From contig CAXXLL010000003.1 of assembly GCA_963662545.2 (NCBI GenBank), positions 704,001 to 768,000 on the forward strand: DNA of 64,000 bases, in the 5' to 3' direction. Position numbers and translations under genes: made by a program. The notes beneath the pieces were generated by a model. The model worked only from the letters and a program-made list of their open reading frames with translations, ran no database searches and was not told the origin of the DNA. The first letter of the stretch is position 1, and every line of letters begins with the position of its first letter. Of the stretch, positions 16,979 to 45,607 are shown piece by piece. This DNA comes from Gammaproteobacteria bacterium (GTDB lineage Bacteria > Pseudomonadota > Gammaproteobacteria > Ga0077536).

Positions 16979-16989
16979 GGGCTCGACCG

Positions 16990-17649
16990 GTGAACGGCAT
17001 TCACGACCTCGGCGGCATGCACGGCTTCGGGCCGGTCGCGCCCGAAAAAGACGAACCGGTATTCCACGCCGAATGGGAAAAACGCATGCTCGGGATGTTC
17101 GCGCCGACGTTTGCACTGGGTTTTTACAACATCGACGAGTTTCGCCATGCGATCGAGCGCATGGGTCCGCAACAATACCTGGCGACTTCGTACTACGAAC
17201 ACTGGCTCCATGCCCTGGAAACGCTGGCCTTGGCCAAGGGCGTGATCACCGAGGAAGAACTGCACACCGGCCATGCGGCGGTCGGTGCAGCCAAGTCCGA
17301 GCCAGCTATAAAGGCCGAAGACGTACCCAAGATCGTTGCTACCGGCGCGAGCGCGCGGGTCGACGCCGACGTCAAGCCTAAGTTCAAGGAAGGCGACATG
17401 ATCGTCGTCAGGAACATCAACCCGCCGTCACATACACGCATGCCGCGCTATGTGCGCGACAAACTCGGCTGTATCGACCGCGACCACGGCGTGTTCGTAT
17501 TTCCCGATTCGAGCGCCCACGGCAAAGGTGATAAACCCCAGCATTGCTACAGCGTGTACTTCAGCGCGCAGGAGTTGTGGGGCTCCAGGGCCTCGCGTAA
17601 CGATTCCGTCTACGTCGATTTGTGGGACGATTACCTGGTGCCGGCCTGA
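16990..17649 (+). CDS. nthB: Nitrile hydratase beta subunit
   Basis: MNGIHDLGGMHGFG, DEFRHAIERM, SYYEHW, HTRMPRYVR. Confidence 0.96.
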   Translation: MNGIHDLGGMHGFGPVAPEKDEPVFHAEWEKRMLGMFAPTFALGFYNIDEFRHAIERMGPQQYLATSYYEHWLHALETLALAKGVITEEELHTGHAAVGAAKSEPAIKAEDVPKIVATGASARVDADVKPKFKEGDMIVVRNINPPSHTRMPRYVRDKLGCIDRDHGVFVFPDSSAHGKGDKPQHCYSVYFSAQELWGSRASRNDSVYVDLWDDYLVPA

Positions 17650-27677: not shown

Positions 27678-29066
27678 TTAGGTGCCGAGCCTGCGTAGTG
27701 ATGCCCTGGTCAGAAACTCGTCGTAGACCTCGAGGCCGCGGTTGACGAACATTTCCCATCCGCCCGCGATCTTCTTGACCTGGTTCAGCCGCGACATCCG
27801 GTTGGACTGGATATTGTGCGCGTGTACGTGACACCAGGACCAGTAAGGATTGGCGCCGTCCATGACCTGCTTTCCACCGCTGTCGTAGAGGGAAAAGGCG
27901 CCATCGAACGACTTAAAGACCTCGCCGTTTCGATCGTAGGTCACCATGTTCATCGGCAAACCGGTTCGCGCATCGAACCAGACCCGCTTTTTGCTGATCG
28001 GGGCACGCGGGTAAGAAGTGGGTTCCGCTTCAACGACGATGGCCTCGGGGATCAACTCGACGTTCGTATCCCAGAACGTGGTGCCGAGCGGACCGCCGTG
28101 AGTCGTGCCTTCCCAATTCTCGTCATCCGAGAACCAGTTCTCCGTCAGTCCTGACAGATAGGGTCCGCGCGCGACGATCTTGAAGTTGCCCCAAGTGAGG
28201 AAGGGATCGCCCGCGGCCCAAGCATCTGAAAAATAGAGGCTGGACCCCGGCAGCAGCGGTTCGAACCGCTGGCTTGCCGGAAAAGTTCTCACCCGCTTGA
28301 ATTGCGGGAGGTAGCCCAACAGCTCGGGAAATCTACGCTGATCGTAATACCAGGTGTTGAGGAACGCGGTGCCCTTGTAGTCCTGAGGAATGGTGAACAA
28401 TATGGATTGATAGCGCAGCTTATCCTCGTGCCCGGCCCAGTAGGGCATGGGCTCGACCGAAATACGGCCAGTCGGCGCAAATTCACACCAAACGAGTTCG
28501 TAGCGGTAGGCAACCTTGCCCTCGGTATCCATTTCGTAGGTCTTGATCGGGTAGAACGATACGTCGTGACGCCCCCAGGTCAGGGTAATACCGGCGAAGA
28601 TCTCAAGCCCATTGGTGGGTTCCGGAAACGGATTACCGCCGACCCAGGGCTTGCCGTCGCCGACGACCACGTTCCCGGTGGCATCGAATTTCGCCATGCC
28701 CTTGTGCCGGAGCGTGGCTTCCGTGTACTCGATCGGACTCAGCTTGGTCATGTCGGTCGTCGACTTGACCAAGCCGAGCTTGCGGCCCATCTGCTTGATC
28801 TGGGTGTATTTGATGGGGTCTAAGAGATCCTGAACCAGATCGACGTTATCGGCGTCGATCACATCGCCCGGTTTGAGCTTGCCTTTGGTGAACTCCTCGA
28901 TCGAAAGGAGATCGTCGGTATAAGCGGCGGCGAAATCGCCGTTCTCCGCCAGGGCCGACCATACAGGCATCAACACCCCCGCCCCCAAAAAGCCCGCCGC
29001 CGTTTGTTCGATAAAGTGTCGTCGACTGTAATCTACCGTATATTTTTTGATGCGCATCGCTGGCAT
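27678..29066 (-). CDS. DUF1329-like periplasmic protein with twin-arginine signal
   Basis: SRRHFI Tat motif; GNPFPEP, YLPQFKRVR, YDRNGEVFK, EFLTRASLRRLG; context with DUF1302, RND and YCF48-like genes. Confidence 0.78.
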   Translation of the reverse strand: MPAMRIKKYTVDYSRRHFIEQTAAGFLGAGVLMPVWSALAENGDFAAAYTDDLLSIEEFTKGKLKPGDVIDADNVDLVQDLLDPIKYTQIKQMGRKLGLVKSTTDMTKLSPIEYTEATLRHKGMAKFDATGNVVVGDGKPWVGGNPFPEPTNGLEIFAGITLTWGRHDVSFYPIKTYEMDTEGKVAYRYELVWCEFAPTGRISVEPMPYWAGHEDKLRYQSILFTIPQDYKGTAFLNTWYYDQRRFPELLGYLPQFKRVRTFPASQRFEPLLPGSSLYFSDAWAAGDPFLTWGNFKIVARGPYLSGLTENWFSDDENWEGTTHGGPLGTTFWDTNVELIPEAIVVEAEPTSYPRAPISKKRVWFDARTGLPMNMVTYDRNGEVFKSFDGAFSLYDSGGKQVMDGANPYWSWCHVHAHNIQSNRMSRLNQVKKIAGGWEMFVNRGLEVYDEFLTRASLRRLGT

Positions 29067-29100: not shown

Positions 29101-30084
29101 TTAGACACAAAGTAATTCAAACAATTCATCAATACGGTCCGAATCCAAATCGCGGCCGATGAAAACCATGCGACTCGACCGCTCACCGTCGGGCCAATCC
29201 TCCAGCCATTCTAGCGGGTAGAATTTGTTCTGCACGGCGTGGATCAGCGCGGGCCGCCCTTTCTTTTCACGAAAACCGGCCAAGCCCTTGATCCGGAGCA
29301 CATTATCTGCCATTTCGTTCACCACCCGGTTGAGAAACACCCCGGTACCGGCAAGGCTTAGGGGCTCGTCGCGACAGATGAGGTGCGACATGTAATGCGC
29401 GGCGTGATCGTGATGAGCATGTACTGCCGCCAGCCAGCGGCTGATGTTGTCGGCGCGATCGTCGGGCTGGAAAAGGGAACGATCGAACAGGCGCCCCGGA
29501 TCGATGCACCCATGCGCGGCTTCGATGATCTCCGCACTTGAATTGAGTGCTCTCAAATCTGTGAAAAGTTCGGCGAGGGCCGCGCGCTCGACCGCATCGA
29601 CCTTGCTCACCAGAAGTATGTCCGCCATCGCCACTTGATCAGCAGCAGTCGCGTGCTCGGCGAGCGTTCGTCTCCCGTGTTCGCCGTCGACCATGCAGAC
29701 GACAGCATCCAGATAATAGGCCTGTTGCAGCGGTGGGTTCGCCATCAAAGTATGGATCAAAGGGATCGGATCGGCGACACCGCTCGTCTCCACGACGACC
29801 CGCTCGAAAGCTGGAATGTCTTCGAGATACCGCTTCTGGTGAAGATCGCGCAGGGTCAGTGCAAGATCACCGCGAATCGTACAGCACAGACAGCCGCCGC
29901 GGAGTTCGACGATGTTCTCGGCGAGGTCCGCGACGACCAGATGGTCAATACTGACTTCACCGAACTCGTTGATTACGACGGCGGTATTGGCGAAATTGCG
30001 TTGGCTCAGAGCATTAGACAGCAGCGTGGTCTTACCGCTACCGAGAAATCCCGTGAGCAAAATGACAGGAGTGCGTGCGATCAC
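29101..30084 (-). CDS. CobW/COG0523 G3E GTPase metallochaperone
   Basis: TGFLGSGKTT, NEFGE, GCLCC, ETSG, SKVD, His-rich HAHHDHAAH, MVFIGR. Confidence 0.93.
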   Translation of the reverse strand: MIARTPVILLTGFLGSGKTTLLSNALSQRNFANTAVVINEFGEVSIDHLVVADLAENIVELRGGCLCCTIRGDLALTLRDLHQKRYLEDIPAFERVVVETSGVADPIPLIHTLMANPPLQQAYYLDAVVCMVDGEHGRRTLAEHATAADQVAMADILLVSKVDAVERAALAELFTDLRALNSSAEIIEAAHGCIDPGRLFDRSLFQPDDRADNISRWLAAVHAHHDHAAHYMSHLICRDEPLSLAGTGVFLNRVVNEMADNVLRIKGLAGFREKKGRPALIHAVQNKFYPLEWLEDWPDGERSSRMVFIGRDLDSDRIDELFELLCV

Positions 30085-30170: not shown

Positions 30171-32417
30171 TCAAAGCGATGCCTCTGCGGTCTCGCAATG
30201 GGAATTGCCTTGCGCAGAAGTAAACTCATCGGTGAAATTCGCCGGCAGGTATTCGCTGTGCTGGTCCAGTTCCGCGAGCAGCGGGCAGGCCTGTTCGGGG
30301 CGGGTGGAATCAGCCCTGATGCGAACCCGGCTCAGCATCCCTTCCCACCAGACAGGCATGGTCGGAACCGCCTTGTTGGTGATAACCCCCCATGCGCGGT
30401 CGGCTTCGAACGGTTGCTCTGAAGCTTCCGAGGCGTTGGCCAGCAATTTCCAGGCGTCACCTGAGGTTGGATGCTGCTTGGCGAAATCGAGTGCTTCGGC
30501 GTAGGCTTCCTGGGCGTCACCTTGCTCGAGCAAGGATTCTACCAACATCACGCTAAAGCGCCGGTCCATGTCAGGCAGGTCTTCGACCTGCGGCCGAATG
30601 ATACGGACCAAGGCCAGGCGTTCAGCATTGTCTTTACGATTCGATATCCAGGGATAGAGGTACTCGAGCTGCCAACTGGGGATCCCCTGGGCACCCAGGC
30701 CGCGAACGTACTCCAGCGCGCGGCTTGAATCACCTAGGCGATCGAAAAGTTTCAAGCGGGACCAGACCAGGGCGCGGCGAACGTCGAGGCTTAGATTTCC
30801 CTTGTCCTCGATACGGCGCAATTGCTCGAGGACTTTCTCGGGCTCTTCACCGACCAGGGCGCGCATCTCGATCAACACAGCAAAGTTGAATTGATCTTTT
30901 TTGTCTGCCTTGGGCAGCCTGGTCCACGCCTGGATGCCCTGCTTGGCCGGTCCGATCGCGTAGGCGTCCTTGCCGCGGCTGATCTTGCGGCTGAATTCGT
31001 TCGCGATCACCTGAAACGCAGTGCGCTCAACATCACCTTTCAATTTAGACGGTGAGCGAACCTGCCCCAGTGCTTTGAGCGCGGTCGTTGCATTCGACGC
31101 CGTCTGAGCCATCAACAAGCGCGCCGAATCCGCGCCGGCGTCGTCGGGACTTTTTCGGATGAAACGCTGCGCAGCCGTGCGCAGGGCTTTGCGATTGGGT
31201 GCTGAACTGGCGGCTTGTTCGCGCGTCGCGTAAACCGCATAGAGGAGCTTGGCTGCGGCCTTGTCGAGCTCGGGTACGAGGTTCGGCCGCCGGATCAGCT
31301 TCTCCAGGATGTCGATCGCAGGCTGGTATATCTTGTTCCGGTATGCCACGAGCGCCCAGCGGTATCGATAGTTCGATAGGTCGAGGCCTTGGGGTGGATT
31401 AACGGTACTGAAAAACTTCTGGTACTTCATCATCGCGTCGTGCCAGTGCTCGAACTCTAAAGCGAACTCGGCACCGGCGAGGTCGGTGTACGGGCCGACA
31501 TTCACACCCGCCAATTCCTGCCTGAAATGCATCATGTCGGAAAGCAATTGCTGGTCGATACGGCCCGCCGCGATGATCGTCTTCAGCCGGTCCGCCGCCT
31601 CCAGCGCCCGGCCGCCGGTCTTGCGGCTCTGCTGCAGCAGCGCGAGGGCCTCGGCCTTCAGGATGGCGATTTCGTTATCGTCCACGACGGCGCCGCGGCG
31701 CGTCTTCTTGACCTTGCCTTGCCGCGCCGCGAGCAGCCGTAATTCGAGATTGACCGCCTGTCGGATAGGGTGATCAGCTTCTTCGTCAAGGGCTTGCTCG
31801 AGGTTTTCGAAAATTGCCGACGCCCGGTCGTAACGGCCTCTTTCCAATTCCACGTAGCCGAGGCCAAGCCAGCCGCCAAAGACCAGCCCGGGCCGGAAGA
31901 GCTGCATGGAGGCCGCGCGAAATCCTTTCCGCGCGGGCAGCAGATCCTTGGCGAGTTCAGCTTTGTCGGGATTGAGGCGCGCGAGTTCGAGGTCGATCCA
32001 CGCGCGCCAATACGGGAAGGCAGCCAATGAAAAACTCAAGTCGTCCCAAACCTGGGACCGGTAGAGACGTTCCAGCGCCGCTTCTTTCTCGCCGGCGGCG
32101 GCTTCGGTCTGGCTCAATTTACGCTCGGTCGCGCTGCGCATTTTACTGCATAGTCGGCGCATCTCGCGTAACTGGTCCGGCGTCACTTCGGCTTGGCGAA
32201 GTTCGTCGACGATGGGACCTAGTTCGTTGGCGACGACCACGAACTCCTCGTGGGATGGCAGGGCTTCCAGACGGGACAGCAGCGCCTTCGTCTTGGCGAT
32301 CGAATCGGTGCCGATATCGGCAAACACCGGGGTGAACCCGATTAACAGCGCCGCGAACAGGGCGGTTCGCACCAGATGGACGAGGCGCGATCGCAGAGGG
32401 CATGCAAACGCGGGCAC
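30171..32417 (-). CDS. Large secreted alpha-helical (TPR-like) protein
   Basis: GTG start overlaps the upstream stop (TAGTG); signal peptide ending PVFA; helical repeat patterns such as WLGLGYVELERGRYDRA and YRWALVAYRNKIYQPAIDILEK. Confidence 0.65.
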   Translation of the reverse strand: MPAFACPLRSRLVHLVRTALFAALLIGFTPVFADIGTDSIAKTKALLSRLEALPSHEEFVVVANELGPIVDELRQAEVTPDQLREMRRLCSKMRSATERKLSQTEAAAGEKEAALERLYRSQVWDDLSFSLAAFPYWRAWIDLELARLNPDKAELAKDLLPARKGFRAASMQLFRPGLVFGGWLGLGYVELERGRYDRASAIFENLEQALDEEADHPIRQAVNLELRLLAARQGKVKKTRRGAVVDDNEIAILKAEALALLQQSRKTGGRALEAADRLKTIIAAGRIDQQLLSDMMHFRQELAGVNVGPYTDLAGAEFALEFEHWHDAMMKYQKFFSTVNPPQGLDLSNYRYRWALVAYRNKIYQPAIDILEKLIRRPNLVPELDKAAAKLLYAVYATREQAASSAPNRKALRTAAQRFIRKSPDDAGADSARLLMAQTASNATTALKALGQVRSPSKLKGDVERTAFQVIANEFSRKISRGKDAYAIGPAKQGIQAWTRLPKADKKDQFNFAVLIEMRALVGEEPEKVLEQLRRIEDKGNLSLDVRRALVWSRLKLFDRLGDSSRALEYVRGLGAQGIPSWQLEYLYPWISNRKDNAERLALVRIIRPQVEDLPDMDRRFSVMLVESLLEQGDAQEAYAEALDFAKQHPTSGDAWKLLANASEASEQPFEADRAWGVITNKAVPTMPVWWEGMLSRVRIRADSTRPEQACPLLAELDQHSEYLPANFTDEFTSAQGNSHCETAEASL

Positions 32418-33538
32418 TATAGGATATCCAGCAGCGCCTGCATTTCGTTGGCGAACCGGTCGCCCATGATGAGGGTGATGAGCCGCTTGGTGAGCTTTAT
32501 CTCGCCGTCCAGCGTCGCGGCGTCCCCCATGCCGGCTTCGCCAATGACGAGGAAAGAATGCATGGGCGCGGCCCGGTACAGGGCCCGGCTGACCTTGCGC
32601 CCGACCTTGGCCTCGAGCAGATGGGGATTGGCCTGGTCGCTGACGTCGAGCGTTGACACCGTTCCGCCCAAGCGCCGGAAGCGCTCGACAATCCTGACCA
32701 CCGTTTTCAACTGACTCTCTTTCATCGGCGCATCGCCGATGACGATGATGATCTTGCGGGCGCCCAGCCGCCATCCTGAAAGTTCCACGGCGTCCTTCAA
32801 GCCCGCGTCGATCGCCTCGAACCAGTCGCCGCCGCCTTTCGCTTCGAGCGAATTCAAAAACCGGTGCAGTTTTCCGGTGCTGTAGGTCAAGGGTTGAACG
32901 CGGGTCAGGAATTCCGGATCGTCGCGATCGCGGTAAGCCACGAACCCGAAGCGCGCGATCGGGACCAGTGAGCGCACGATCTGCGCGATATCCGCGATTC
33001 GATCCTTGACCTCGTCGAGTACCCAGCCCATGGAACCGGTGGCGTCGACCGCGAATACGACGTCGAGACCCGCTGCCCTCAGGCCGGCGATGTAGGCAGC
33101 AAAACGCGCCGTACCGTCGCCGAGACCGTTGCCGATGCCGGTCTTGAAGCCGCCGAAACCACTGCCCTGACTCAAGGGCATAGTGGCCAGTCCCGAGGCC
33201 ACTTCGATCCCCTGAAAACCGCCGGACTGGGCTTTCAGGGCAAGGGTGACATCCGGCGGCGGCGGTGCAACGGCTTTCGGCGCGATCAGTATTTCGGGCG
33301 GGTCGAGTTCCAGGTCCTCCTCGAATTCGAGCTGATCTTCGGGCGGCGGCGGTTTTTCGATCAGGGGTTCAGGAGGCGCGTCGATGACGATTTGCGCTTC
33401 TTCGTCCGGGATCGGCAGTGGCGCCAGCGGTTCAATTTGTCGGCCGACCTGCCACGACACGATGGCATGAATAACGCTCGAGAACATCAGCAGCGTCAGC
33501 CACAGGCCCATGCGCTTCGGTGATGCCAAATGGAGCAT
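32417..33538 (-). CDS. TonB-like membrane-anchored protein with C-terminal VWA domain
   Basis: N-terminal TM with SxxxH (SSVIH), Pro/Glu-rich spacer, Gly-rich linker, VWA with DVVFAVDATGSM (MIDAS), GFVAYRD, IIVIGDAP; ATG 33538. Confidence 0.8.
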   Translation of the reverse strand: MLHLASPKRMGLWLTLLMFSSVIHAIVSWQVGRQIEPLAPLPIPDEEAQIVIDAPPEPLIEKPPPPEDQLEFEEDLELDPPEILIAPKAVAPPPPDVTLALKAQSGGFQGIEVASGLATMPLSQGSGFGGFKTGIGNGLGDGTARFAAYIAGLRAAGLDVVFAVDATGSMGWVLDEVKDRIADIAQIVRSLVPIARFGFVAYRDRDDPEFLTRVQPLTYSTGKLHRFLNSLEAKGGGDWFEAIDAGLKDAVELSGWRLGARKIIIVIGDAPMKESQLKTVVRIVERFRRLGGTVSTLDVSDQANPHLLEAKVGRKVSRALYRAAPMHSFLVIGEAGMGDAATLDGEIKLTKRLITLIMGDRFANEMQALLDIL

Positions 33539-33543
33539 AGGTT

Positions 33544-33981
33544 TTACTCCGCGTCCAGCCTGCGTTGCGTGACGAGGACGAACTGCAGGACCCCAGCCTC
33601 CGACGAGGTTTTCATGATCTCGGACAGGGTTAGTGCGTTCACTTTCAAGTCCGCATGTATCTTGAGGCGCTCGTGACCGGTGACCTTGGACAGCTCGACC
33701 TTGAGTTGGTCCCACGTCACCGGCCGGTTTTCGAACCGCATGGAACCATCTTCTTTGACACTGACCGTCGGAATATGTTTCGCGGGCTCGGCGTCGTTGG
33801 TCGAAAACGGGGGCGTGACGTCATAGTCCGGCTGCAGGTTACCGGCGATCATGAAATACAGCAGCAACAGAAAAATGATGTTGATCATCGGAATGACGTT
33901 TTCCTGCTGCGTCGCACGGTTCCCCACCGCGCGATTGCGGAGCTCCTGGTAATCCGATGATTTTCTGTTGCGTCGCGTCAT
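33544..33981 (-). CDS. exbD: ExbD/TolR family protein (Asn in place of TM Asp)
   Basis: NVIPMINIIFLLLLYFMIA TM, IHADLKV periplasmic motif. Confidence 0.82.
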   Translation of the reverse strand: MTRRNRKSSDYQELRNRAVGNRATQQENVIPMINIIFLLLLYFMIAGNLQPDYDVTPPFSTNDAEPAKHIPTVSVKEDGSMRFENRPVTWDQLKVELSKVTGHERLKIHADLKVNALTLSEIMKTSSEAGVLQFVLVTQRRLDAE

Positions 33982-33998
33982 GGTGGTCCCCACCTCGC

Positions 33999-34397
33999 CT
34001 ACTCGAAACGCCTCGCCGCCGACAGCGAGATATTCATGATGTCGTATTGATTGAAGAGATCCATGACCTCGACTGCGTCCTGCAGTATGACGTCCTTATC
34101 GACGGCGAGCAGTACCCGGGTCTTTTCCACCTCTACAATGCGCGAGGCGTAAGCCCGCAGCTCGTCCATGCTACTGGCCCCGCCGTTCAACCAAATCGAA
34201 CCATCGGCGTGCATTTCGACGCCGATCAACGCGAGATCGGTCGACGCATTATTGCTGCCGGCCGAATGCGAAAACTCGATCGCGCGCGGTCGCAGAAAAT
34301 TGGTCTGCAGCATGAAAAATATAAGCAGAATAAACACCACGTCGACCAGCGGGGTGAGCGACATCTGTCCCGAGCGCCGATGGCGCCGCATGGGCAT
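33999..34397 (-). CDS. exbD: ExbD/TolR family protein
   Basis: SLTPLVDVVFILLIFFML, LAVDKDV. Confidence 0.88.
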   Translation of the reverse strand: MPMRRHRRSGQMSLTPLVDVVFILLIFFMLQTNFLRPRAIEFSHSAGSNNASTDLALIGVEMHADGSIWLNGGASSMDELRAYASRIVEVEKTRVLLAVDKDVILQDAVEVMDLFNQYDIMNISLSAARRFE

Positions 34398-34423
34398 AAT
34401 CGCCTGGCGGGAGGCCTCCAAGC

Positions 34424-35083
34424 TCAGCCGTCCTCGCCCAGGGTGAGTACGCGCGTGATCAAATCGGTCACCTCATCGGCGAGAAACTCGAGCCGCGATT
34501 CGAGCAGAGCGTGCATCACGGCAAACGGGATCGCGATCGACAGCCCCACGGCCGTGGTCAGCAGCGCCTCCCAGATGCCGCCCGCGAGCGCTGAAGACTC
34601 GCCCGACGCGCCGGCGCTGACGGCGAGACCCTTGAAGGCATCGATCATGCCGAGGACGGTGCCCAGCAGTCCTAGTACGGGCGCGAGGTAGTAGATCAAT
34701 TCGAGCGGCCGCAAGTTACGCGAATAGCCGCGCAGAAAGGCCGCCGCCCGGCGCAGCAGTTCGTCGTGCAGGATGTCGGGGTCGTGTTCCGACCTCTTCT
34801 CAAGGCCGAAGCGGATGTCCGCGGCGATGGACAGCCGCGATCCGTCGAGCATCTTGAGCGCCTTGGTGTGATCGCCTTGCTGCCAGAGATCGATCGCTTT
34901 ATCCATGCGGTTCATTGCCGCGCGCCCGACACCGGAGAACTGGATGAACTTGATGAGCGCCAATGCGAGCCCCAGCACGGATGCCGCCAGCAGGATGCCG
35001 ACGACCGGGCCGCCGAGCTCGAGCAGAGTCGCGGCGCCGGACAGAATCTCAGTGATCAGGCCCTGGTTTTCTGAAGCTTCCAT
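34424..35083 (-). CDS. exbB: MotA/TolQ/ExbB proton channel
   Basis: APVLGLLGTVLGMIDAF, LAGGIWEALLTTAVGL. Confidence 0.92.
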   Translation of the reverse strand: MEASENQGLITEILSGAATLLELGGPVVGILLAASVLGLALALIKFIQFSGVGRAAMNRMDKAIDLWQQGDHTKALKMLDGSRLSIAADIRFGLEKRSEHDPDILHDELLRRAAAFLRGYSRNLRPLELIYYLAPVLGLLGTVLGMIDAFKGLAVSAGASGESSALAGGIWEALLTTAVGLSIAIPFAVMHALLESRLEFLADEVTDLITRVLTLGEDG

Positions 35084-35234: not shown

Positions 35235-35264
35235 AAAAAAAGAGCCGGCGCAAGGCCGGCTCTT
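35235..35264 (-). terminator. Rho-independent terminator after DUF1302 gene
   Basis: 10-bp stem aagagccggc/gccggctctt followed by a U tract on the minus strand. Confidence 0.85.
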
Positions 35265-35289: not shown

Positions 35290-37644
35290 CTAGAAGTAAT
35301 AAGTCATGCGAAGGAAGATTTCGTCCGCAAAATCGATCGTCTCCATGATATCGTCGTTTTCGTCACCGCCGTCCTGGACGAGGTTGGCGTAGAGATCCCA
35401 CTGCCAGTTGGCGGCCGGCCGGTAACGGAAACCGGGTTGTATGAAGTAGCCACCCTCGACGTCGATCAGTACGGCGAAGTCAAAACGCCAGATCAGGTTC
35501 GGGAACGGCTGCTGGAAAGCGAACACGACGTAATCGGCATTGTCGCTACCCTTCGGCTTTGCCGCGTCCTCAATGAACGCCGCCGGCGTGAAATCACCCG
35601 TCACCGGATCGATGAACGTATCGAAATCCACGCTCTCCGTACCGCTCAGGTGACGCCCGAAGAGGTCGGACTCGGTGCGGTGCATCCACTGGAAAACCAT
35701 GTACATCGAGGGAAAAGCCGCCGTCCAACGTTGGTATTTCTCGAAGATGAGCGCCGATACGACTTCGGTCTTCTCGATGAACTTGAAGCTAAGCCCCAAG
35801 TCCGTGAACTTCTTGTTCGGCGTGACCGACACTTCACCGCGGATCAGGAGTTGATCGAAGATCGAATTCGGATCCGTGTTGACGAGGTAGTTCGCGCCGA
35901 CCGCGAGGACGTGTTCACGCTTGAATTCGCGTGTGACCCAGGCGCGGAAAGCACCGAAGGAACTGTGGAAGCCTTCGACCGTGCGCAGGGCGTCGACGAC
36001 GTTGCGTTCCTGGCCGAAACCGAATATTTCGCGGGTGGCCCATTGGTCTGCCGGCCATTCGTCAACTACAACGCGGAGCGCCTTCATCGGGTCGAGGCGG
36101 CCGCGATTGACGAGATGAAAAAACTCGGTCGAGTTCGCCGCGATCGGATCGGGCGACAGCGGCGTACCACAATACCCAGTCGCCGTTCCAGGAGCATGGT
36201 CCGGCATATTCGGTATCGCGCCACCGAAAAGAGTGCTCACATCAGCTTTGCCGTTGGGCAAAACCCCCAATCCGGCAAATAATCCACTACCCCCCGCGGT
36301 TTTGTCCGCAAGACCCTTGAGGATGTTATTCGTGTCGTTAAAGGCACCCAGGCAGAAGCGGTTTTCGGTACCCGCGTGAACGCTTGGGGCTTCGGCATAG
36401 CGCGCCACACCGTCCGGGTTGCGGCGGTTGGTGTACATGAATAGGGCCGTGAAGTAATCGGTTAACGGCATCGTCAAACGGAAGCCAAAATTGATCGCGC
36501 CCCGGGCATCGTTGAACTCGTCGCGCTCGTTCAGGGTGACGCCGGCACCGATGACGCTGTAGGGCGAGTTAATCGCTGGCAGGATAGTCGGCGACCACAT
36601 CTGTGCAAATGCATCCAGTTCCCATTCGTTCTTGAACGTGTAGCTCAAGCGGATAGCGGGCGAAGCAACACGCTGGTCCGAGTATTCTTCGGCACCGGGA
36701 CCGAGGGTCAAGTGACGGCGCAGGTCGAGGCCGTTGGCGACGTCCATGACGCGGAAGAAATAGGCCTCGCCCCAGGCGATGGTCTGGTTACCGACGCGGA
36801 TCCACAGGGGCCCCTTGTTGTAGTCGATATAGGCGGCCGGGATGTCGACGATGAAGTTCGGCGAATTCCATTCCGCGAGCTGACCGCTGGTACCCCAGTA
36901 GGGGTTTCCATAGTGATCGGAGATCTGACCGTCGGTGAAACTCGACGAGCCGTCGAAGTAGGTACGGATCTTCATGTAGCCCGCCCAGTTCTTGTTGAAA
37001 CGGGCCTGGATGTCGACTTCGAGGCGGGAGTTGAAGGTATTGAAGTTGATGTCGTCGTTGAGCCCTTCGCCCTGCACGCTGCGGCCTACCCCAACTGCGG
37101 CGGCGCCCACGGCGCCATTGTTACCGGGCACAAAGAACGAACCAGCACCGGTCAAGGTACCACCAGCGCCGAGTCCGCCGGAGGGACACAACACGCCACG
37201 GAATCCTGGGATATTCGTCGAACCAAAGACGCCTGAGAGTCCTCCCGATCCCGCATTGATCGCATTCTGACTGCCGAACCGGCAGTTGACAGGCGAATTG
37301 GTGTTGGCTCCCGCCTTGATAAAAGCTGCGCCCGCGTTAAATACGCCACCTTGGAAACCACTAGTCGCGTTTATAAACGACGTGGTATCCGCGTCCGCAT
37401 TCGCACCCGTGCCATACGCGGCATGCGTGTAATTCGGTACGATCCGGTTGTTGAACGTTGATCCCATCGAGTTCAACTCATTGTTGTTCGCCGCGATGCT
37501 GTAAGCAATTTCCTCGCGGAAAAAACCCGTAATATTCCAGTCGATGGCCGACACGGCGCCTGCAAACAGGACGCTGGAGGCCACACCCCCAGTCATGAGA
37601 ATGCGTGCGATTGCGTGCTTGATCACTCCCGCTCTCCTCTTCAA
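35290..37644 (-). CDS. DUF1302-like outer-membrane beta-barrel protein
   Basis: Signal peptide; RVGNQTIAWGE, DVANGLDLRR; alternating beta-strand pattern; C-terminal MTYYF. Confidence 0.8.
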   Translation of the reverse strand: MKRRAGVIKHAIARILMTGGVASSVLFAGAVSAIDWNITGFFREEIAYSIAANNNELNSMGSTFNNRIVPNYTHAAYGTGANADADTTSFINATSGFQGGVFNAGAAFIKAGANTNSPVNCRFGSQNAINAGSGGLSGVFGSTNIPGFRGVLCPSGGLGAGGTLTGAGSFFVPGNNGAVGAAAVGVGRSVQGEGLNDDINFNTFNSRLEVDIQARFNKNWAGYMKIRTYFDGSSSFTDGQISDHYGNPYWGTSGQLAEWNSPNFIVDIPAAYIDYNKGPLWIRVGNQTIAWGEAYFFRVMDVANGLDLRRHLTLGPGAEEYSDQRVASPAIRLSYTFKNEWELDAFAQMWSPTILPAINSPYSVIGAGVTLNERDEFNDARGAINFGFRLTMPLTDYFTALFMYTNRRNPDGVARYAEAPSVHAGTENRFCLGAFNDTNNILKGLADKTAGGSGLFAGLGVLPNGKADVSTLFGGAIPNMPDHAPGTATGYCGTPLSPDPIAANSTEFFHLVNRGRLDPMKALRVVVDEWPADQWATREIFGFGQERNVVDALRTVEGFHSSFGAFRAWVTREFKREHVLAVGANYLVNTDPNSIFDQLLIRGEVSVTPNKKFTDLGLSFKFIEKTEVVSALIFEKYQRWTAAFPSMYMVFQWMHRTESDLFGRHLSGTESVDFDTFIDPVTGDFTPAAFIEDAAKPKGSDNADYVVFAFQQPFPNLIWRFDFAVLIDVEGGYFIQPGFRYRPAANWQWDLYANLVQDGGDENDDIMETIDFADEIFLRMTYYF

Positions 37645-37953: not shown

Positions 37954-38979
37954 CTATTTGAGGACGCGGGCGATGGTGCCCTGATGTCCCACGATGTAGA
38001 TGATCTGCTGGCGCAGGAAGCCCTTGTTGCCGGCCTTGGATTCGGTCACACCCGCATCGACGGCCTGAAACCACGTGCGGATGATTTTGTGATCTCCGGT
38101 GGCCGTGAAGCTCGCGCCGTCGTCGCTGCTGCGGAGCAGGGTACGGATCCCGCTCGCCACCACTTCACTGTTGCCCGCCCAGACACCGAGCAGGTTCGTC
38201 TTGACGCCGACGTCCAGGCGCTCCCAGGTCAAGCCGTCATCGGAGGTTTTCAGCATCAGCCCTTCCTGGCCGACCGCGTAGCCGGTATGGCTGCCGTCGT
38301 TGGCAAGGCGCATGGCGAATACGGACTCGTCGCCCCTGTCCACGTCACGCCAGGTGTCGCCGTCGTCCTCGGAGCGCAGGATGAGACCGAATTCGCCCGC
38401 GACCATCAAGGTGCCGTCGTCGGTCACGATCGCGTCGTAGAGGTGCGGCTCGTAGCCTTCGTCGTTGTACTCCATCCAGTCGATCGTGAGCGGCTCCCAG
38501 GTTTCACCGTGGTCGCGCGAGCGCGCGAGGAACCCGAACTCGCCGACCACGAGGGCGAAACCCGATGGGTTCATGGCGACGTTCAGTAGGCGCACCTCGA
38601 TACCGCTATCGATCTCACGCCACTCCTCGCCCTCGGCCCGCACCATGACGATCCCCTTCTGCCCGACGATTATCTGGCGGTTGCCGGCATGCGTAATGCC
38701 GAGCAAAGCCAAGGTCGTCTTCGGCGGCAGCACGGCCCAGTTCAAGCCGCCGTCGGTGGTTTCCAGCATGAGTCCGAAATTACCGACCGCCATGCCCCAT
38801 TCACCGGTCATTTCGAGCCCGAACAAGGCGTCGTGGGGAATGCCGCTGCGAATGACTTCGATGCCTGCTTCGGGGCCGTTCGCTTCCTGCGCGTGCGCGG
38901 AAAAAACGGTCGCCGCGAGGACGAAGAGCAGCGCCGCTTGTCTGCCGAACAAGCGGCCGAGGGTCACTATTTCTTTCAT
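37954..38979 (-). CDS. YCF48-like/BNR-repeat beta-propeller protein
   Basis: Repeated AVG..G.....T.DGG..W Asp-box motifs; signal peptide. Confidence 0.87.
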   Translation of the reverse strand: MKEIVTLGRLFGRQAALLFVLAATVFSAHAQEANGPEAGIEVIRSGIPHDALFGLEMTGEWGMAVGNFGLMLETTDGGLNWAVLPPKTTLALLGITHAGNRQIIVGQKGIVMVRAEGEEWREIDSGIEVRLLNVAMNPSGFALVVGEFGFLARSRDHGETWEPLTIDWMEYNDEGYEPHLYDAIVTDDGTLMVAGEFGLILRSEDDGDTWRDVDRGDESVFAMRLANDGSHTGYAVGQEGLMLKTSDDGLTWERLDVGVKTNLLGVWAGNSEVVASGIRTLLRSSDDGASFTATGDHKIIRTWFQAVDAGVTESKAGNKGFLRQQIIYIVGHQGTIARVLK

Positions 38980-39009: not shown

Positions 39010-41439
39010 TCAGGAAGAGTGCTCTCGCTGCGCGCCCATTATTTCCGCAAGTTCGATGTTCTCCGAAACGATGAGGTGTTCGCGCTCGACGAATCGGGGC
39101 TTGAAAATGTAAACCAGCAACGGCAGCACGATCAGCGCAATGACCATATTGATGAGCATGATCATCACGAGCAGCAGCCCCATCTCCGCGAGGAACTTCA
39201 GCTCCGACATGAAATACCAGGGCAGGATCCCGATGAGTACGATGGTTGCGGTAAAGAAGATGGCCTTACCCGTCGTTGTAACGGCGGCTTCGATCGCCTG
39301 TCCGTGATGCTCGCTGTCGCGAAACTCCTCGCAGATCCGGCTCAACAGGTAGATGCCGTAGTCGATACCGACGCCGATGCCGATGGACGCGATCGGAAGG
39401 CTGTTGACGTCGAGGCCGATGTCCATCAAGACCATGACCGATAAGAGCAGCACGTTCGAGAAATTAACCGGGATCAGGAGCAGGATCCCGGCCACAAACG
39501 AGCGGTAAGCAAAACTGCAGGTCAGCAGGATGACGCCGTTGAGCGCCATCAGGATCCACCACTGGTAGGTGTCCACCGTGTCGTTGACGGATTGTTGCAG
39601 GGCGATAGCGCCGGTCCCCAGGCGGATGCGAAAACGGTCCTTGTCGATCCCGATTAACTCGAGAGCGGCACGCGTGTGCATCAGCGCGGTATCGACGGTT
39701 TCCTGTTTGTTGTCCTTGTACCAGAGGGACACGGTGCCGTTTTCCATGGAGAAATCCGTCACGTGCGAATAGGACTTCGGACTCGAGCCGATCATGAGCG
39801 CGTTGACGGCGGCGTTGACCGATACGTCGTTGTAGTCGATCGGGGCCCACTTCGGATTACCGCCGCTGAACAGGCGGTTGGCCTCCGGCAGGTAATCACC
39901 GAAAGACAGGGTTGCCGAAGGCGGCGGATCCTGCGATTCGAGATACCGCTGCAATTGGATCATGGTGCCGATGGGTTCGGCCTGACGCAGGATGCGTTCG
40001 CGCTGCTCGGGGCCTCCGGATTTACCTTCGAAGACGACCTCGAGCGTCATGATGCCCGGGAAGTGGTCGTTGATGGCGCGCACGGCGGTGTTGTAGTCGG
40101 ACGCCACCTTCAACAGGTTGCTGCCCTCGACCGGGTTGCCGACCTTGATCTGCAGGGTCAAATAGAGGCCGACGGCCGCGAGGATTAGCACGACCACCGT
40201 GGTCGCGCGCGCGCGCGCGCCGTGCGACAAAGTCGAGATCATCCGCAGCAACTGGATGATGCGCGTATGCCAGGTTTTGGTCTCGGATTTGCCGATCAGC
40301 GTCGCCACGTTCTTCGGCGCCGGAAACCATGACAACAGGATCGGCGTCAGGAACAAGTTCGACGGTACCAGTATCATCGCCCAGAAACCGCAGAAGATGG
40401 CGAAGCGCTCCATCACGGGGATCGGCGCGATCATGATCAGGAACAAGCCGGCCGCGTCCGTGATGATGCCGAGCACGCCCGGCGCCATCATGACGCCCAG
40501 CGCGAGCTCGGCGGCTTTCCGCCGGTCCTTGATCTCGTAGTAGATCTCGTAGAAACGTTCGATAAACTGCACGCAGTGGCTGAAGGAGCGCGCCACCAAC
40601 AGCAGCGGCACGACCATGATCAAGGGTTCGATCGGATCGCCCAGCCAGCCGACGAAGCCGAAACCCCAGATGGCCGCTACGATACTCACCGCCAGCGGCG
40701 TGACGACGCCCGGAATATTGCGCATATAGACCACGAGCGACAGCAGTAGGGCGCTGGCCGTGATGGCGAAGATCTTCAGCATGTCGACTTCGTACTTGTA
40801 CACCCAGCCGGTCAACATGGGCTGTCCGGCGGCGTAGATTTCGTGACGCTCGTCGGACGCGTTCGCGATCATCTCCTGGATGTATTTGAAAGTTTCTCCG
40901 TAATCGAGCGAAAACTCGATGAAGGTCGCGGTGATGAGGGTCGCCGTTTCGTCTTCACTGATCAGAAAAGTGCGAACGTTGGGCGCCCTATCCACCGCCA
41001 ACCGGAATTTATTGAGTTCTTCCTCGGTTTCCGGCGCCTTGTCGCCCATCAAGGGCTTGAAATCGATGCCGTAGGGTGTCGCCTCGGCCCAGCGTGCCTT
41101 CTCGGTCGTGATCGACAGGATCTGATCGTGGTCGACGGCCGGCGTGAGATCGATGTCGCGCGTCATGTCCCAGACTTTGGCGAGGGTTTCCGCGTTGTAG
41201 ATCGTCCCGTCCTTGACCTTGACCATGATCGTAATGGTCAGGGGGTTGCCGAAGTTGGGGTGGTCTTTATAGGTCTGCACGAAGGGATGGTTCTTCGGAA
41301 AGAGGTCGGAGAAGACAGTGCGCAGTTCTACTTTAGTCAGTCCGACGGCGAAGAACGCAGTGATACCGAAAATAACCGCCGCAACAAGCACGCGATGTTT
41401 CAAGGTCAGCATCGCCAGCGTATAGCGTAAGCCCTTCAT
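39010..41439 (-). CDS. MMPL/RND family transporter
   Basis: Two halves, each with a periplasmic loop and TM bundle; ARSFSH, GIGVGIDYGIY, TTGKAIF. Confidence 0.9.
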   Translation of the reverse strand: MKGLRYTLAMLTLKHRVLVAAVIFGITAFFAVGLTKVELRTVFSDLFPKNHPFVQTYKDHPNFGNPLTITIMVKVKDGTIYNAETLAKVWDMTRDIDLTPAVDHDQILSITTEKARWAEATPYGIDFKPLMGDKAPETEEELNKFRLAVDRAPNVRTFLISEDETATLITATFIEFSLDYGETFKYIQEMIANASDERHEIYAAGQPMLTGWVYKYEVDMLKIFAITASALLLSLVVYMRNIPGVVTPLAVSIVAAIWGFGFVGWLGDPIEPLIMVVPLLLVARSFSHCVQFIERFYEIYYEIKDRRKAAELALGVMMAPGVLGIITDAAGLFLIMIAPIPVMERFAIFCGFWAMILVPSNLFLTPILLSWFPAPKNVATLIGKSETKTWHTRIIQLLRMISTLSHGARARATTVVVLILAAVGLYLTLQIKVGNPVEGSNLLKVASDYNTAVRAINDHFPGIMTLEVVFEGKSGGPEQRERILRQAEPIGTMIQLQRYLESQDPPPSATLSFGDYLPEANRLFSGGNPKWAPIDYNDVSVNAAVNALMIGSSPKSYSHVTDFSMENGTVSLWYKDNKQETVDTALMHTRAALELIGIDKDRFRIRLGTGAIALQQSVNDTVDTYQWWILMALNGVILLTCSFAYRSFVAGILLLIPVNFSNVLLLSVMVLMDIGLDVNSLPIASIGIGVGIDYGIYLLSRICEEFRDSEHHGQAIEAAVTTTGKAIFFTATIVLIGILPWYFMSELKFLAEMGLLLVMIMLINMVIALIVLPLLVYIFKPRFVEREHLIVSENIELAEIMGAQREHSS

Positions 41440-41832
41440 ATGCGCTTCCCCCGTCGCCCTGCTGCGTTCCGCCCTAAGGCCGGGCGCAGAGCGTCATTTC
41501 ATTATTCGAAAAAAACGACGCAGCTTTGCGCTGCGTTCCCTCGTGTAGGTTTTCGGCTTCTCGATGGGCCGCCGACCGCACCGGCGACCTTGCCGGAAAG
41601 GGATTATTACAAATTTGACTGCGCGCGTCAGACGCCACCGTTCGGGTATCAAAGGGTGTCTGGAGCATGCGCGAGCGCCTGAATATAGAGGCGCACCGAA
41701 AATCTGTCAACTGCTTAATTTTCATAGCAATCTTCACCTTCGCATCCGTCAAGGGTGCCTTACTAATCGCAAGGCTGCGACGCTACGATCAGGTATCATC
41801 CCGATTATCTTGCCATCGACCGCCTTCAGATC

Positions 41833-42447
41833 GTGCCCACGTCGCTGACCAATAAAAATGCCCGCACTGCGGTCAGCAACCGCAGTGAAGAGGTTCTCGA
41901 AGCGCTCGAAAAACTCATTCTTGCCGAGGGTTTCTCCCGGCTCAACGTCTCGGACATCGCCGCGCGCCTCAGTTGTTCCAAGCGCACACTGTATGAACTC
42001 GCCCCGAGCAAGAACGAACTCGTGCTGAACGTTCTCGATGGCTTCTTTCGGAGAATCAGGCACCAAGCCGCTGGCGCAACCGACAGCAAGATGGGTCCCG
42101 AGCGGCAGGTATTCGAATACCTGCAAGTCGGCGTGGTTGCCGCGGAACGGCTCAGCGCCGCCGCGCTCGCCGACATCCACCGCTGGGAACCCGCTCGCTT
42201 GATCTGGCAGGAGCACGTAAGACTCCGCGTCGAAGGCCTGCGCCGGATCATCGAAAACGGCGTCGAGGCAGGGGTCTTCAGCGAGGTCCGTCCCGCTTTC
42301 GTCGCCGAGATCGTGTTCGCCAGCATCAATCGCCTGCGCGAACCCGACTTCTATCTGTCGACGGATCTCACGATATCGGAAGCGTTTCACGAACTCTACG
42401 GGATGCTCCTGAAATCCCTCACGCACCGACCTAGTAACTCAGCTTAA
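41833..42447 (+). CDS. TetR/AcrR family regulator
   Basis: EGFSRLNVSDIAARLSCSKRTLYELAPSKNEL HTH. Confidence 0.9.
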   Translation: MPTSLTNKNARTAVSNRSEEVLEALEKLILAEGFSRLNVSDIAARLSCSKRTLYELAPSKNELVLNVLDGFFRRIRHQAAGATDSKMGPERQVFEYLQVGVVAAERLSAAALADIHRWEPARLIWQEHVRLRVEGLRRIIENGVEAGVFSEVRPAFVAEIVFASINRLREPDFYLSTDLTISEAFHELYGMLLKSLTHRPSNSA

Positions 42448-43278
42448 CTCGCGCAGTACCGAAAGCACGGTTTCAGGATGGGCGGAGTGCGGAATGGATC
42501 CGTAAAGTAAACGGCCGGCCGACGCACCCGCATCGATCGCGGCTCCACCCCAGAAACTGTCGGTAAGCCCGCCGCCCAGACGCGGTGCTTCGGCCTCGGC
42601 CGCTATCGCGTCGAGCGCCAGTTGTGGAAACAGGATCAAATCGAGGTCTAGAGCGACCGTCGGGACTGCCCCGTCTGCCCGATCGGGCAGGCTCATGGCC
42701 GTGACCCAATCGTAATGCCTGGCGGCGCTGATGATCGGTTCGTAGGCATCGATCTCGTCAGCACTCAGCGCTGCCTGCCCGCGCTTCTCGAGCAGCACCC
42801 CCGTCAACGGTCGCTCGGCCAGCGGCCGCAGAAAATTCGACATTGCGCTCGCCAAGTCATCGAGTTCGTCAAATTCAAGCGCCGCGGTGCCCTCCCCCGC
42901 ACCCAGGAGATCCGCAGGCGCGTGCAGTACGACGATGAGATCAACGTGGCCGGCGAATCGATGCACGAGTGCATCCAGCACATTGTTCACGAAATCGATA
43001 TGGGCATCGGCTCCGAATAGCTGGACCAGCTCTTCGGCGTTCGGCGCGCCGTCTCTCTCTCCCAGGGCAGGCAACAGGGGAGCACACAGGTCGATCGAAA
43101 GGCATTGGGTCGCAATGGCGCCTTGCGCCTGGATCAAGCTCGCTGCGAACCGCGAGGCATCGGCGTACCAATCGTCCGGCGAATTGGCGAAGACATGACG
43201 CGCGTACGCTTCGAATTCCACCCAGAGCAGCCGGGATCCGCCGTCGTCCAACCAGGATTTGAGCGCGGACATGGGCAC
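42439..43278 (-). CDS. Hypothetical protein, positional and size equivalent of ApcE (epsilon subunit)
   Basis: 279 aa, last gene of a five-gene carboxylase-like operon; no motif recognised. Confidence 0.55.
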   Translation of the reverse strand: MPMSALKSWLDDGGSRLLWVEFEAYARHVFANSPDDWYADASRFAASLIQAQGAIATQCLSIDLCAPLLPALGERDGAPNAEELVQLFGADAHIDFVNNVLDALVHRFAGHVDLIVVLHAPADLLGAGEGTAALEFDELDDLASAMSNFLRPLAERPLTGVLLEKRGQAALSADEIDAYEPIISAARHYDWVTAMSLPDRADGAVPTVALDLDLILFPQLALDAIAAEAEAPRLGGGLTDSFWGGAAIDAGASAGRLLYGSIPHSAHPETVLSVLRELS

Positions 43279-45566: not shown

Positions 45567-45607
45567 GGTCGTTACCTCGAAGTCGAAATCCCAAAGTAGA
45601 AAAAAGC

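Follow-up and report, generated by a model that had tools for sequence, protein, structure and literature searches.

Within a stretch of 64,000 nucleotides from a gammaproteobacterium of the GTDB lineage Ga0077536 (assembly GCA_963662545.2, contig CAXXLL010000003.1, positions 704,001 to 768,000 of the forward strand; hereafter the window), five adjacent genes on the minus strand, at positions 30171-35083, encode an ExbB-like protein, two dissimilar ExbD-like proteins, a protein with an N-terminal membrane helix and a C-terminal VWA domain (X), and a large secreted TPR-like protein (Y). We suggest that these genes specify a proton-motive-force motor of the ExbB/TolQ 5:2 type together with its own force transducer, likely acting on hydrophobe handling, and we regard the case for and against this reading, taken as a whole, as evenly balanced. 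Its parts differ in strength: judged from sequence and predicted structure, it is quite probable that X is a motor-coupled transducer; that the job of the module is the transport of hydrophobic compounds through the DUF1302 and DUF1329 proteins encoded beside it is a tentative proposition and on balance a doubtful one.

The locus belongs to a class, the vWA force transducers, that was already proposed in print in June 2025 (Mol Biol Evol, [quoted passage not shown] section 8; PMC12204202); the interpretation is reasonable and is not new. Members of that class, to which no function is assigned, were described as having a helix with an SHLS motif, a disordered linker containing a "motor box," and a vWA C-terminal domain, and their genes lie beside one tolQ-like gene, two "heterologous" tolR-like genes, and a TPR gene; AlphaFold3 placed the conserved His at the motor site used by TonB and TolA (PMC12204202). 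X has the same features, namely, an N-terminal helix with Ser and His, a disordered Pro-rich linker, a vWA fold, and the same gene set, and is likened to the class by this architecture. The two arrangements differ in that the TPR gene of our locus is downstream of, and translationally coupled to, X, whereas PMC12204202 describes it as upstream, in the PVC group. The words DUF1302, DUF1329, and RND are absent from the main text of PMC12204202, and no other paper on vWA-type ExbBD/TolQ transducers was found in the literature listings that we searched.

The five genes are packed tightly in the order exbB (34424-35083; 219 residues), exbD1 (33999-34421; 140 residues), exbD2 (33544-33993; 149 residues), X (32417-33538; 373 residues, with an ATG start at 33538), and Y (30171-32417; 748 residues). 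The intergenic gaps, read directly from the DNA, are 2, 5, 5, and -1 nucleotides, the last reflecting the single base shared by the TAG stop codon of X and the GTG start codon of Y (TAGTG). An earlier note, prepared from this DNA alone, had described a closely coupled exbB-exbD-exbD-X-Y series in which X combines a single N-terminal transmembrane segment with an SxxxH motif, a Pro/Glu-rich spacer, and a VWA domain bearing a DATGS motif, and in which Y is a secreted TPR-like protein of roughly 750 residues coupled to X; each of these features was found where the note had placed it. Between exbB and the gene preceding it, which encodes a DUF1302 protein, a terminator-like hairpin followed by a T-run (35240-35264, minus strand) lies past the stop codon of that gene; it folds with an energy of -21.1 kcal/mol (z-score, -3.7), a stability that none of 200 shuffled sequences equaled, and of the 16 related loci with this junction, 13 have a similar hairpin. 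Because such a hairpin precedes exbB and recurs in relatives, the block from exbB to Y probably starts its own transcript.

Relatives of the module were sought in a contig collection holding one genome per species, from which the best 80 of 563 confirmed stretches were taken. Forty-four of these loci (L001 to L044) carry the full X type, 35 being gammaproteobacterial, 8 alphaproteobacterial (Rhodobiaceae, PS1, and Parvibaculaceae), and 1 from Myxococcota; the other 36 (L045 to L080) match the VWA domain only, have no ExbB or ExbD by family hidden Markov models, and are excluded from all counts. By tblastn and hidden Markov models, the ExbB-ExbD1-ExbD2 trio stands directly upstream of X in 38 of the 44 loci. 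Two more, L006 and L008, run off the contig but show as much of the trio as is visible, one (L005) is not judgeable, and three, considered below, have X and Y without adjacent motor genes. Y-like sequence follows X in 43 loci, as an open reading frame (ORF) in 41 and cut by a contig end in 2; the boundaries of the Y ORF are unclear in L035, and in L041 the contig ends 1.7 kb past X. A start codon in the Y frame falls within -4 to +8 nucleotides of the X stop codon in 34 of 41 loci, which is an upper bound since the nearest start was picked. The core module spans two classes, the gamma- and the alphaproteobacteria, and these frequencies, of the trio directly upstream of X and of Y-like sequence after it, were found in none of the papers searched. 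A putative association of X with ExbB and ExbD is drawn from this synteny only.

An AlphaFold2 model of X built on an alignment of 125 sequences (mean pLDDT, 76) contains a transmembrane helix at residues 7 to 34 (33437-33520; pLDDT of about 95) in which the sequence SSVIH occupies residues 20 to 24. Ser20 (33479-33481) and His24 (33467-33469) are invariant in 125/125 relatives, with identity reaching down to about 35%, and Trp13 is kept in 118 of them; SxxxH was found in the context of a hydrophobic helix in all 44 full-type loci. The positions of the Leu and the second Ser of the TonB SHLS motif are, unlike those of TonB, not conserved in X and are filled by variable hydrophobic residues (V/I/A at position 31 and I/L/V at position 35). 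Averaged over 44 sequences, the net charge is +2.4 before the helix and -0.7 after it, and because of this bias and of the signal peptide on the cotranslated Y, the helix is predicted to be N-in and the VWA domain to be periplasmic and not cytoplasmic.

The linker that follows (residues 35 to 142; 108 residues) is 18% Pro and 17% Asp plus Glu and is unstructured and of low confidence in the AlphaFold2 model. It holds two motifs: a weakly conserved alternating QIVID at residues 49 to 53, the place of the TonB motor box, and an acidic/proline block at residues 66 to 96 (33251-33343; ...LEFEE.LELDPPEILIAPKAVAPPPP), which is the best-conserved stretch of the linker and is likewise unstructured in the model. 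Within this block, L84 is invariant among 125 sequences and P93 among 44 N-terminal sequences, while L70, F72, P80, P81, P87, and P92 to P95 are at least 90% conserved. A profile of the first 145 residues of X, searched over 1.84 billion representative proteins, returned only 43 matches at E values of up to 0.001; 19 of these were scanned against Pfam, and all 11 of at least 332 residues carry VWA domains. Among the matches is a true TonB_C protein, P0265, whose weak similarity (E, 1.4e-4; hhalign probability, 94%) may reflect composition only. X itself has no match to TonB_C. Its family numbers more than 411 relatives; the few with a name from a source are listed simply as "vWA domain-containing protein," "VWFA domain-containing protein," or "hypothetical protein."

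The C-terminal domain of X (residues 143 to 373; 32420-33112) exceeds the cut-offs of three Pfam models (VWA_4, 40.6 against 27; VWA, 31.6 against 23.8; VWA_2, 29.6 against 27) and is modeled by AlphaFold2 as a six-stranded alpha/beta fold with a pLDDT of about 90. Foldseek gave at least 500 matches at E values of 0.001 or less, and the 50 best listed are VWA domains; besides the bacterial protein BatB, which is discussed below, the top matches include the VWA domains of human CMG2 and TEM8 and integrin beta I domains. The loop of the putative metal-ion-dependent adhesion site (MIDAS), DATGS (residues 165 to 169; 33032-33046), is present in 116 of the 125 relatives; D165, T167, E241, and D269 are invariant, the last within the motif (I/V)GDAP. 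Four of the five canonical MIDAS positions are retained, as D165, T167 (in place of Ser), S169, and D269. The proposal of the earlier note, a noncanonical energy transducer that grips its partner through a MIDAS contact, is a sound reading and is partly supported: its architecture and synteny are borne out, and, as far as sequence can tell, neither a cytoplasmic VWA domain nor an SxxxH motif that varies among relatives, both of which the note had named as counterevidence, was observed; the MIDAS grip is a tentative part of it, a Gly occupying the fifth position.

The motor subunits show both the hallmarks of their families and one asymmetry. ExbB scores 87.5 bits against the Pfam model MotA_ExbB (cut-off, 22.9; E, 7.7e-25), and ExbD1 and ExbD2 score 69 bits (E, 5.3e-19) and 66.9 bits (E, 2.4e-18) against the model ExbD; all three are above cut-off. 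The conserved pore stretches of ExbB, GLLGTVLGM and EALLTTAVGL, align with the equivalent stretches of solved ExbB, and we take them to hold the counterparts of Thr148, Thr181, and also Glu176. Thr148 and Thr181 of ExbB are rated essential in the accessible text of a review (PMC12905483). Every NCBIfam TolQ/ExbB equivalog score of our ExbB lies far under its cut-off, and no equivalog cut-off was reached by the motor proteins; on account of these scores, ExbB is to be placed, by sequence, on a divergent branch of the family. In ExbD1, the Asp of LTPLVDVVF falls on that of TPFIDVM in chain 6tyi_Y, presumably Asp25 of the Escherichia coli protein, while the residue of ExbD2 that aligns with the same Asp of solved ExbD is the Asn of IPMINIIF. 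The Asp was found in 40/40 rows of ExbD1 and the Asn in 39/39 rows of ExbD2, in alignments that cover gamma- and alphaproteobacterial loci, so that the transmembrane Asp, the residue taken to carry the proton, is confined to ExbD1. The difference suggests that the two subunits pair as a heterodimer in which only one site can be protonated. An Asp/Asn pairing of two ExbD subunits was not found among the listed papers on ExbD1/ExbD2 heterodimers or in two reviews, in a search that was not exhaustive, and the accessible passages of PMC12204202 make no mention of such a difference between its tolR-like genes. An affinity of the module to the antiphage system Zorya was considered and rejected: matches to ZorA are weak (E of about 0.005; 14 bits) and confined to the shared MotA-like region, and the other four proteins have no match.

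The TonB-ExbB-ExbD system shares with the module the motor families, the N-in SxxxH helix, and the Pro/Glu-rich spacer, and the TonB2 operon of Vibrio resembles it further in having a TPR gene right after the transducer gene. The module differs from this system in that X lacks TonB_C, no receptor is encoded in the window, and there are two different ExbD subunits, one of which lacks the Asp. The absence of a TonB-dependent receptor, which the earlier note had reported, was borne out among the 49 of the 87 window ORFs of at least 150 residues that were scanned, none of which matched Plug, TonB_dep_Rec, or TonB_C; these 49 are the nonshadow ORFs, including all 11 of at least 600 residues, and the threshold was an E value of 0.01 or less, or of 1e-5 or less in one scan.

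Y begins with a signal peptide (residues 1 to 33; 32319-32417) cleaved at VFA|D, and an N-terminal hydrophobic region is found in 113 of 118 relatives. It gives almost no Pfam signal, its TPR matches being weak and under cut-off (TPR_14, 22.2 against 23.5 bits), and the assignment to the TPR-like proteins comes from structure: AlphaFold2 models an all-helical solenoid of about 38 helices with high confidence (mean pLDDT, 93; pTM, 0.69), and the Foldseek matches are the long TPR scaffolds Ctr9, Ski3, and TTC7, at low TM-scores of 0.15 to 0.26. A homologue that is 60% identical (P0140) structurally resembles only long TPR proteins in a protein atlas. Two Cys residues near the C terminus, Cys711 and Cys741, are invariant in 118/118 sequences. 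The Y family comprises 109 relatives, nearly all of them unnamed or hypothetical. A search among longer proteins gave 12 matches. One of these, P0272 (702 residues; a single record), joins an X-type VWA domain (hhalign E, 7e-60) to a Y-like region in one ORF; the Y-like part matches residues 57 to 471 of Y (E, 2e-33), and there is no signal peptide at the junction. A second, P0273 (837 residues), joins HEAT repeats to an X-type VWA domain; the HEAT part was considered as a relative of Y and rejected (hhalign probability, 0.1%). Both proteins are without a transmembrane helix.

The genes that flank the module in the window form a cassette of the AmeABCD type, in which all four families (DUF1302, DUF1329, BNR, and HAE3 RND) were matched with Pfam or NCBIfam. 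On the minus strand between 27.7 and 41.4 kb, the order of transcription is RND, BNR, DUF1302, ExbB, ExbD1, ExbD2, X, Y, CobW, DUF1329. Upstream of the module are an AmeD-like HAE3-type RND/MMPL transporter (39010-41439; TIGR00921, E of 1.3e-42, under cut-off), an AmeC-like BNR/Ycf48-like propeller (37954-38979), and an AmeA-like DUF1302 outer-membrane barrel of 784 residues (35290-37644; E, 6.8e-22); downstream are a CobW/COG0523 GTPase (29101-30084; E, 2e-47) and an AmeB-like DUF1329 protein that is LolA-like (27678-29066; E, 1.7e-51). According to the accessible text of the sources, AmeABCD of Castellaniella defragrans consists of DUF1302, DUF1329, COG4447, and HAE3 proteins, and strains from which it is deleted tolerate monoterpenes less well (PMC6394551); cofitness links the four gene families, for which the export of a cell wall component was proposed (bioRxiv 10.1101/072470); fitness phenotypes have been recorded on Tween 20 and fatty esters (bioRxiv 10.1101/2020.07.04.188060); and DUF1302 is predicted, in a 2026 paper, to form a barrel of 18 strands and to pair with DUF1329 (PMC13499233). 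Here and in many relatives, the module is flanked by all four families; unlike known AmeABCD systems, the present one has the module inserted between the DUF1302 and DUF1329 genes, and the accessible portions of the same four sources mention no motor, VWA, or TPR gene in the known examples.

DUF1329 is the most faithful accessory gene, being downstream of Y in 29 of the 35 gammaproteobacterial loci; it is absent despite enough flank in L010 to L012 and L015, and L020 and L021 are cut short by the end of the contig. DUF1302 is upstream of the module in 20 of the 35, absent with enough flank in 7, and not judgeable in 8. Loci of the Halieaceae type possess the RND-DUF1329-BNR-DUF1302 set in full and carry another DUF1329 gene after Y. 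A tree built by maximum likelihood splits 28 module-linked copies of DUF1329 from 5 other copies, the second ones of the same genomes, on a branch with 100/100 support, a tree that has just these five other rows and no unlinked outgroup. The DUF1329 proteins start with a twin-arginine-type signal (YSRRHF...), the strict motif [ST]RRx[FL] being present in 24 of 32 copies from 27 loci and close variants of it in most of the remainder, and the recurrence of this signal suggests that DUF1329 is exported folded via the twin-arginine translocation (Tat) pathway. In the DUF1302 protein of the window, the alignment to the Pfam model (541 positions) does not start before residue 193; near the N terminus, at residues from about 50 to 190, there is an insertion rich in Gly and Asn, some 130 residues long and containing two Cys. 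We considered this insertion as a periplasmic coupling site and gave the idea up, as the sequence reads as a segment between the first two strands and hence as an extracellular loop.

Genes of fatty-acid metabolism recur around the module. An acyl-CoA-ligase-type gene stands between Y and CobW in seven gammaproteobacterial loci (L016, L018, L019, L024, L027, L030, and L034) and after the DUF1329 gene in three; each of the eight alphaproteobacterial loci (L036 to L043) has an acyl-CoA dehydrogenase homologue abutting exbB on its upstream side, and three acyl-CoA dehydrogenase paralogues are upstream in three Porticoccaceae-type loci. Genes for an acyl-CoA ligase, an acyl-CoA dehydrogenase, or an enoyl-CoA hydratase lie within 10 kb in 21 of the 44 loci and in at least three lineages, a raw count and not an enrichment over the genomic background. 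The CobW gene, which has a CxCC motif, occupies its place between Y and DUF1329 in 13 of the 35 gammaproteobacterial loci and is missing from the other 22 and from all the alphaproteobacterial ones. A nitrile hydratase cluster (14834-17649) lies 12 kb from the CobW gene of the window; some COG0523 proteins activate enzymes of the nitrile hydratase class.

From these elements, a mechanism can be proposed. A pentamer of ExbB would surround a heterodimer of ExbD1 and ExbD2 with one protonatable Asp, and the X helix would dock on the outside of the pentamer via Ser20 and His24, as the helices of TonB and TolA do. Proton flow through the motor would result in a pull on X, whose linker would span the periplasm and whose VWA domain would grip a partner by a metal-dependent, integrin-beta-like contact. 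The most likely direct partner of the domain would be Y, because it is always present, its translation is coupled to that of X, and in one record a Y-like region is joined to an X-type VWA domain. Further partners in gammaproteobacteria would be the DUF1329 protein specific to the module and the DUF1302 barrel, as a pair at the outer membrane, and the motor may power an outer-membrane step for hydrophobic or amphiphilic substrates (fatty esters, lipids, or hydrocarbons) of the AmeABCD-like RND system; such substrates are proposed because the RND cassette and the fatty-acid genes surround the module. In its boldest form, the proposal would amount to a third way to energize the outer membrane, distinct from Ton and Tol, in which a single-site ExbD1(Asp)/ExbD2(Asn) motor would pull a VWA tether and the metal site of the tether would grip the Y solenoid and a Tat-exported DUF1329 protein gating a plug-less DUF1302 barrel; in this full form, we consider it rather unlikely to be correct.

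Several observations weigh against a motor-driven transducer acting on hydrophobes. X and Y are found without adjacent motor genes in L013, L017, and L035; in L013 (1-800) and L017 (7235-9950), they come directly after a DUF1302 gene and before a DUF1329 gene with no exbB or exbD between, a placement that in itself favors the link to those two genes, and X retains its Ser and His; the motor may be encoded elsewhere or be borrowed from another system. The module has neither DUF1302 nor DUF1329 within 10 kb in 11 loci, namely, L010 to L012 and all 8 alphaproteobacterial ones, and for that reason hydrophobe transport is not its universal role. As RND pumps are themselves proton driven, a second motor would not obviously be needed. 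No explanation fits the presence of the CobW gene, and the fatty-acid neighborhood is attested by the raw count given above. In X, no beta-strand corresponding to a motor box is predicted in the linker of the AlphaFold2 monomer. At the adhesion site, the canonical MIDAS Thr position is Gly237, within a GGGD motif, and the invariant Glu241, which may substitute for the missing Thr as in integrin beta, aligns only weakly with the Glu of the integrin-beta PEGG motif (E, 0.004 to 0.8). The tail of P0272 is Arg rich and looks frameshifted, a possible assembly artifact, and judged by its sequence this protein could be either a true fusion or an assembly error. The survey of relatives, moreover, extends to the best 80 of 563 matching stretches of a single collection.

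Among the alternatives, that which survives best is a role in envelope maintenance of the Tol-Pal kind, in which X would play the part of TolA and Y would be a giant CpoB-like partner, the two tethering or remodeling the outer membrane or the peptidoglycan, for example, in division or lipid homeostasis, with the link to DUF1302 and DUF1329 being secondary. The resemblance to Tol-Pal and CpoB extends to the 5:2 motor, the three-domain transducer, the periplasmic TPR partner, a nearby beta-propeller, and the lack of a plug-bearing receptor, the scanned ORFs containing none with a plug or a TonB box. In the alphaproteobacterial loci, the core of five genes occurs by itself, with housekeeping envelope genes nearby (a LolA-like gene a few kilobases upstream in six of eight loci and an adjacent FtsK gene, confirmed only in L039); ExbB and ExbD1 score slightly higher against TolQ and TolR models than against those of ExbB and ExbD; and the export of a cell wall component by the four flanking families, as proposed in the accessible text of bioRxiv 10.1101/072470, would also be an envelope role. 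However, Pfam and NCBIfam scans of the module and its flanks gave no match to TolB, Pal, or the TolA C-terminal domain, the module encodes no peptidoglycan-binding protein of the OmpA-like kind, the propeller is BNR/Ycf48-like and not TolB-like, ExbB and ExbD2 score higher against ExbB and ExbD than against TolQ in searches of solved structures, and the synteny with DUF1329 and the fatty-acid genes is strong and long-lived. We judge this alternative to be unlikely, though worth keeping in view.

The second alternative concerns the role of Y, which could be a periplasmic scaffold that positions the motor rather than the ligand of the VWA domain, the latter then binding DUF1329 or some other envelope protein. 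At rank 22 of the Foldseek matches of Y stands 9hmf_K, annotated as [quoted passage not shown] (E, 1.4e-5; TM-score, 0.21), which we take to be one of the Pfl TPR proteins that hold the MotAB stators. A TPR protein encoded after tonB2, TtpD2, is essential in the Vibrio TonB2 system, according to the accessible text of PMC6957404, and the fusion of an X-type VWA domain to the unrelated HEAT solenoid of P0273 is also compatible with a scaffold. The low TM-scores, however, are such as any long TPR superhelix typically gives, in P0272 the VWA domain runs directly into Y-like sequence, and Y stays with X in L013 and L017, which lack the motor genes; a scaffold in place of a ligand is, in our view, quite improbable.

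A third possibility is that X is a static, Bat-like, membrane-anchored periplasmic VWA protein whose adjacency to exbB and exbD reflects shared regulation. The best structural match of the X VWA domain is indeed that of BatB from Bacteroides thetaiotaomicron (3ibs; E, 2.9e-9; TM-score by target, 0.70), and BatA and BatB resemble X in their inner-membrane anchor, their periplasm-facing VWA domain, and their TPR partners, with which Bat loci pair them in the accessible text of PMC5700661. The same text gives Bat loci a MoxR ATPase and a DUF58 protein and no ExbB or ExbD, whereas neither MoxR nor DUF58 was matched among the scanned ORFs of the window. A static anchor, moreover, does not require the invariant Ser and His of the N-terminal helix, and X is set 5 nucleotides from exbD2 in an order kept in 38 of 44 loci and two classes. 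We regard a static X as very unlikely.

Still less can be said for a surface adhesion or gliding machinery in which the motor would move an adhesin-like VWA element, a suggestion of PMC12204202 that draws on the analogy with a Myxococcus VWA adhesin and on the standing of VWA domains as classic adhesion modules: X sits in the inner membrane, its linker is about 110 residues long, and it bears no signal for secretion or for the outer membrane; genes for gliding or of the Glt-like kind were not found among the scanned ORFs of the window or of five scanned loci; and the carriers look to be planktonic bacteria of marine and freshwater habitats (a weak argument), so that we hold this to be highly improbable. 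Least probable of all is a role in metal handling, for which the CobW gene with its CxCC motif together with a VWA domain recalls the chelatases CobT and ChlD or zinc- or cobalt-regulated uptake, and for which the accessible text of PMC7689651 describes a VWA domain in CobT and a variety of COG0523 clients, but CobW is cytoplasmic and the VWA domain periplasmic, the gene is missing from most loci, no CobN- or ChlH-like gene or AAA+ partner was found among the scanned ORFs, and Zur-box-like sites occur only at 5022 and 5875, by the ZIP and Fur genes, with none near the module (a weak test).

Other features of the window touch the module less closely. The two Zur-box-like palindromes (5022-5036 and 5875-5889), a number to be compared with 0.32 expected, flank a ZIP zinc transporter gene (5046-5834) and precede a Fur-family gene (5964-6452). 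The RND gene has a divergently oriented neighbor of the TetR family (41833-42447, plus strand), and "orf225" (41749-42426, minus strand; 225 residues), which seemed conserved in the synteny table, was discarded as a shadow of this TetR gene; a neighboring ORF of 279 residues (42439-43278, minus strand) is conserved in synteny and has no family match. A second VWA protein, of 737 residues and with an FHA domain (56407-58620, minus strand), and a separate FHA-domain protein (60850-61767, plus strand) may be a signaling pair unconnected with the motor module; a relationship of X to this second VWA protein was looked for by BLASTP, and none was found. A DUF222/HNH endonuclease ORF (52089-53555, plus strand) adjoins the single tRNA gene of the window (53709-53781, minus strand), and the G+C content, at 0.555 for 50 to 52 kb and 0.547 to 0.556 for 58 to 64 kb, is lower there than in most of the window; the low G+C content and the position of the endonuclease ORF next to a tRNA gene may mark the border of a mobile element. 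Three sets of hydantoinase/oxoprolinase A and B genes (8273-12677, plus strand; 43305-50023, minus strand) are an unusual redundancy within 64 kb, and one of them bears an acetone-carboxylase gamma-like tail.

To our knowledge, Ton and Tol are the only well-understood means of delivering energy to the unenergized outer membrane of Gram-negative bacteria. The class of VWA-tipped transducers dates, as a proposal, only from 2025; it was drawn up from genomes and structure predictions alone, and it has no known phenotype. Compared with the literature found, three points look new: the conserved placing of the module inside an AmeABCD-like cassette, together with a DUF1329 paralogue dedicated to it; the fatty-acid genes that recur nearby; and the invariant Asp/Asn pair of ExbD subunits. 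The locus thereby adds handles on the class, in the form of its AmeABCD-like context, the dedicated DUF1329 and TPR proteins as candidate VWA ligands, and the ExbD asymmetry, which bears on the number of proton sites that a 5:2 motor needs; relatives of the flanking AmeABCD-like system have mutant phenotypes on fatty esters, Tween, and terpenes. If the reading as a third route were true, lipids and hydrophobic nutrients would cross the outer membrane in an energized fashion without TonB or a plug domain, and the clusters of DUF1302, DUF1329, BNR, and RND genes, long unexplained, would gain a mechanism. If the link to hydrophobes were true, it would explain the uptake or expulsion of greasy substrates in some marine bacteria and give a role to two widespread domains of unknown function.

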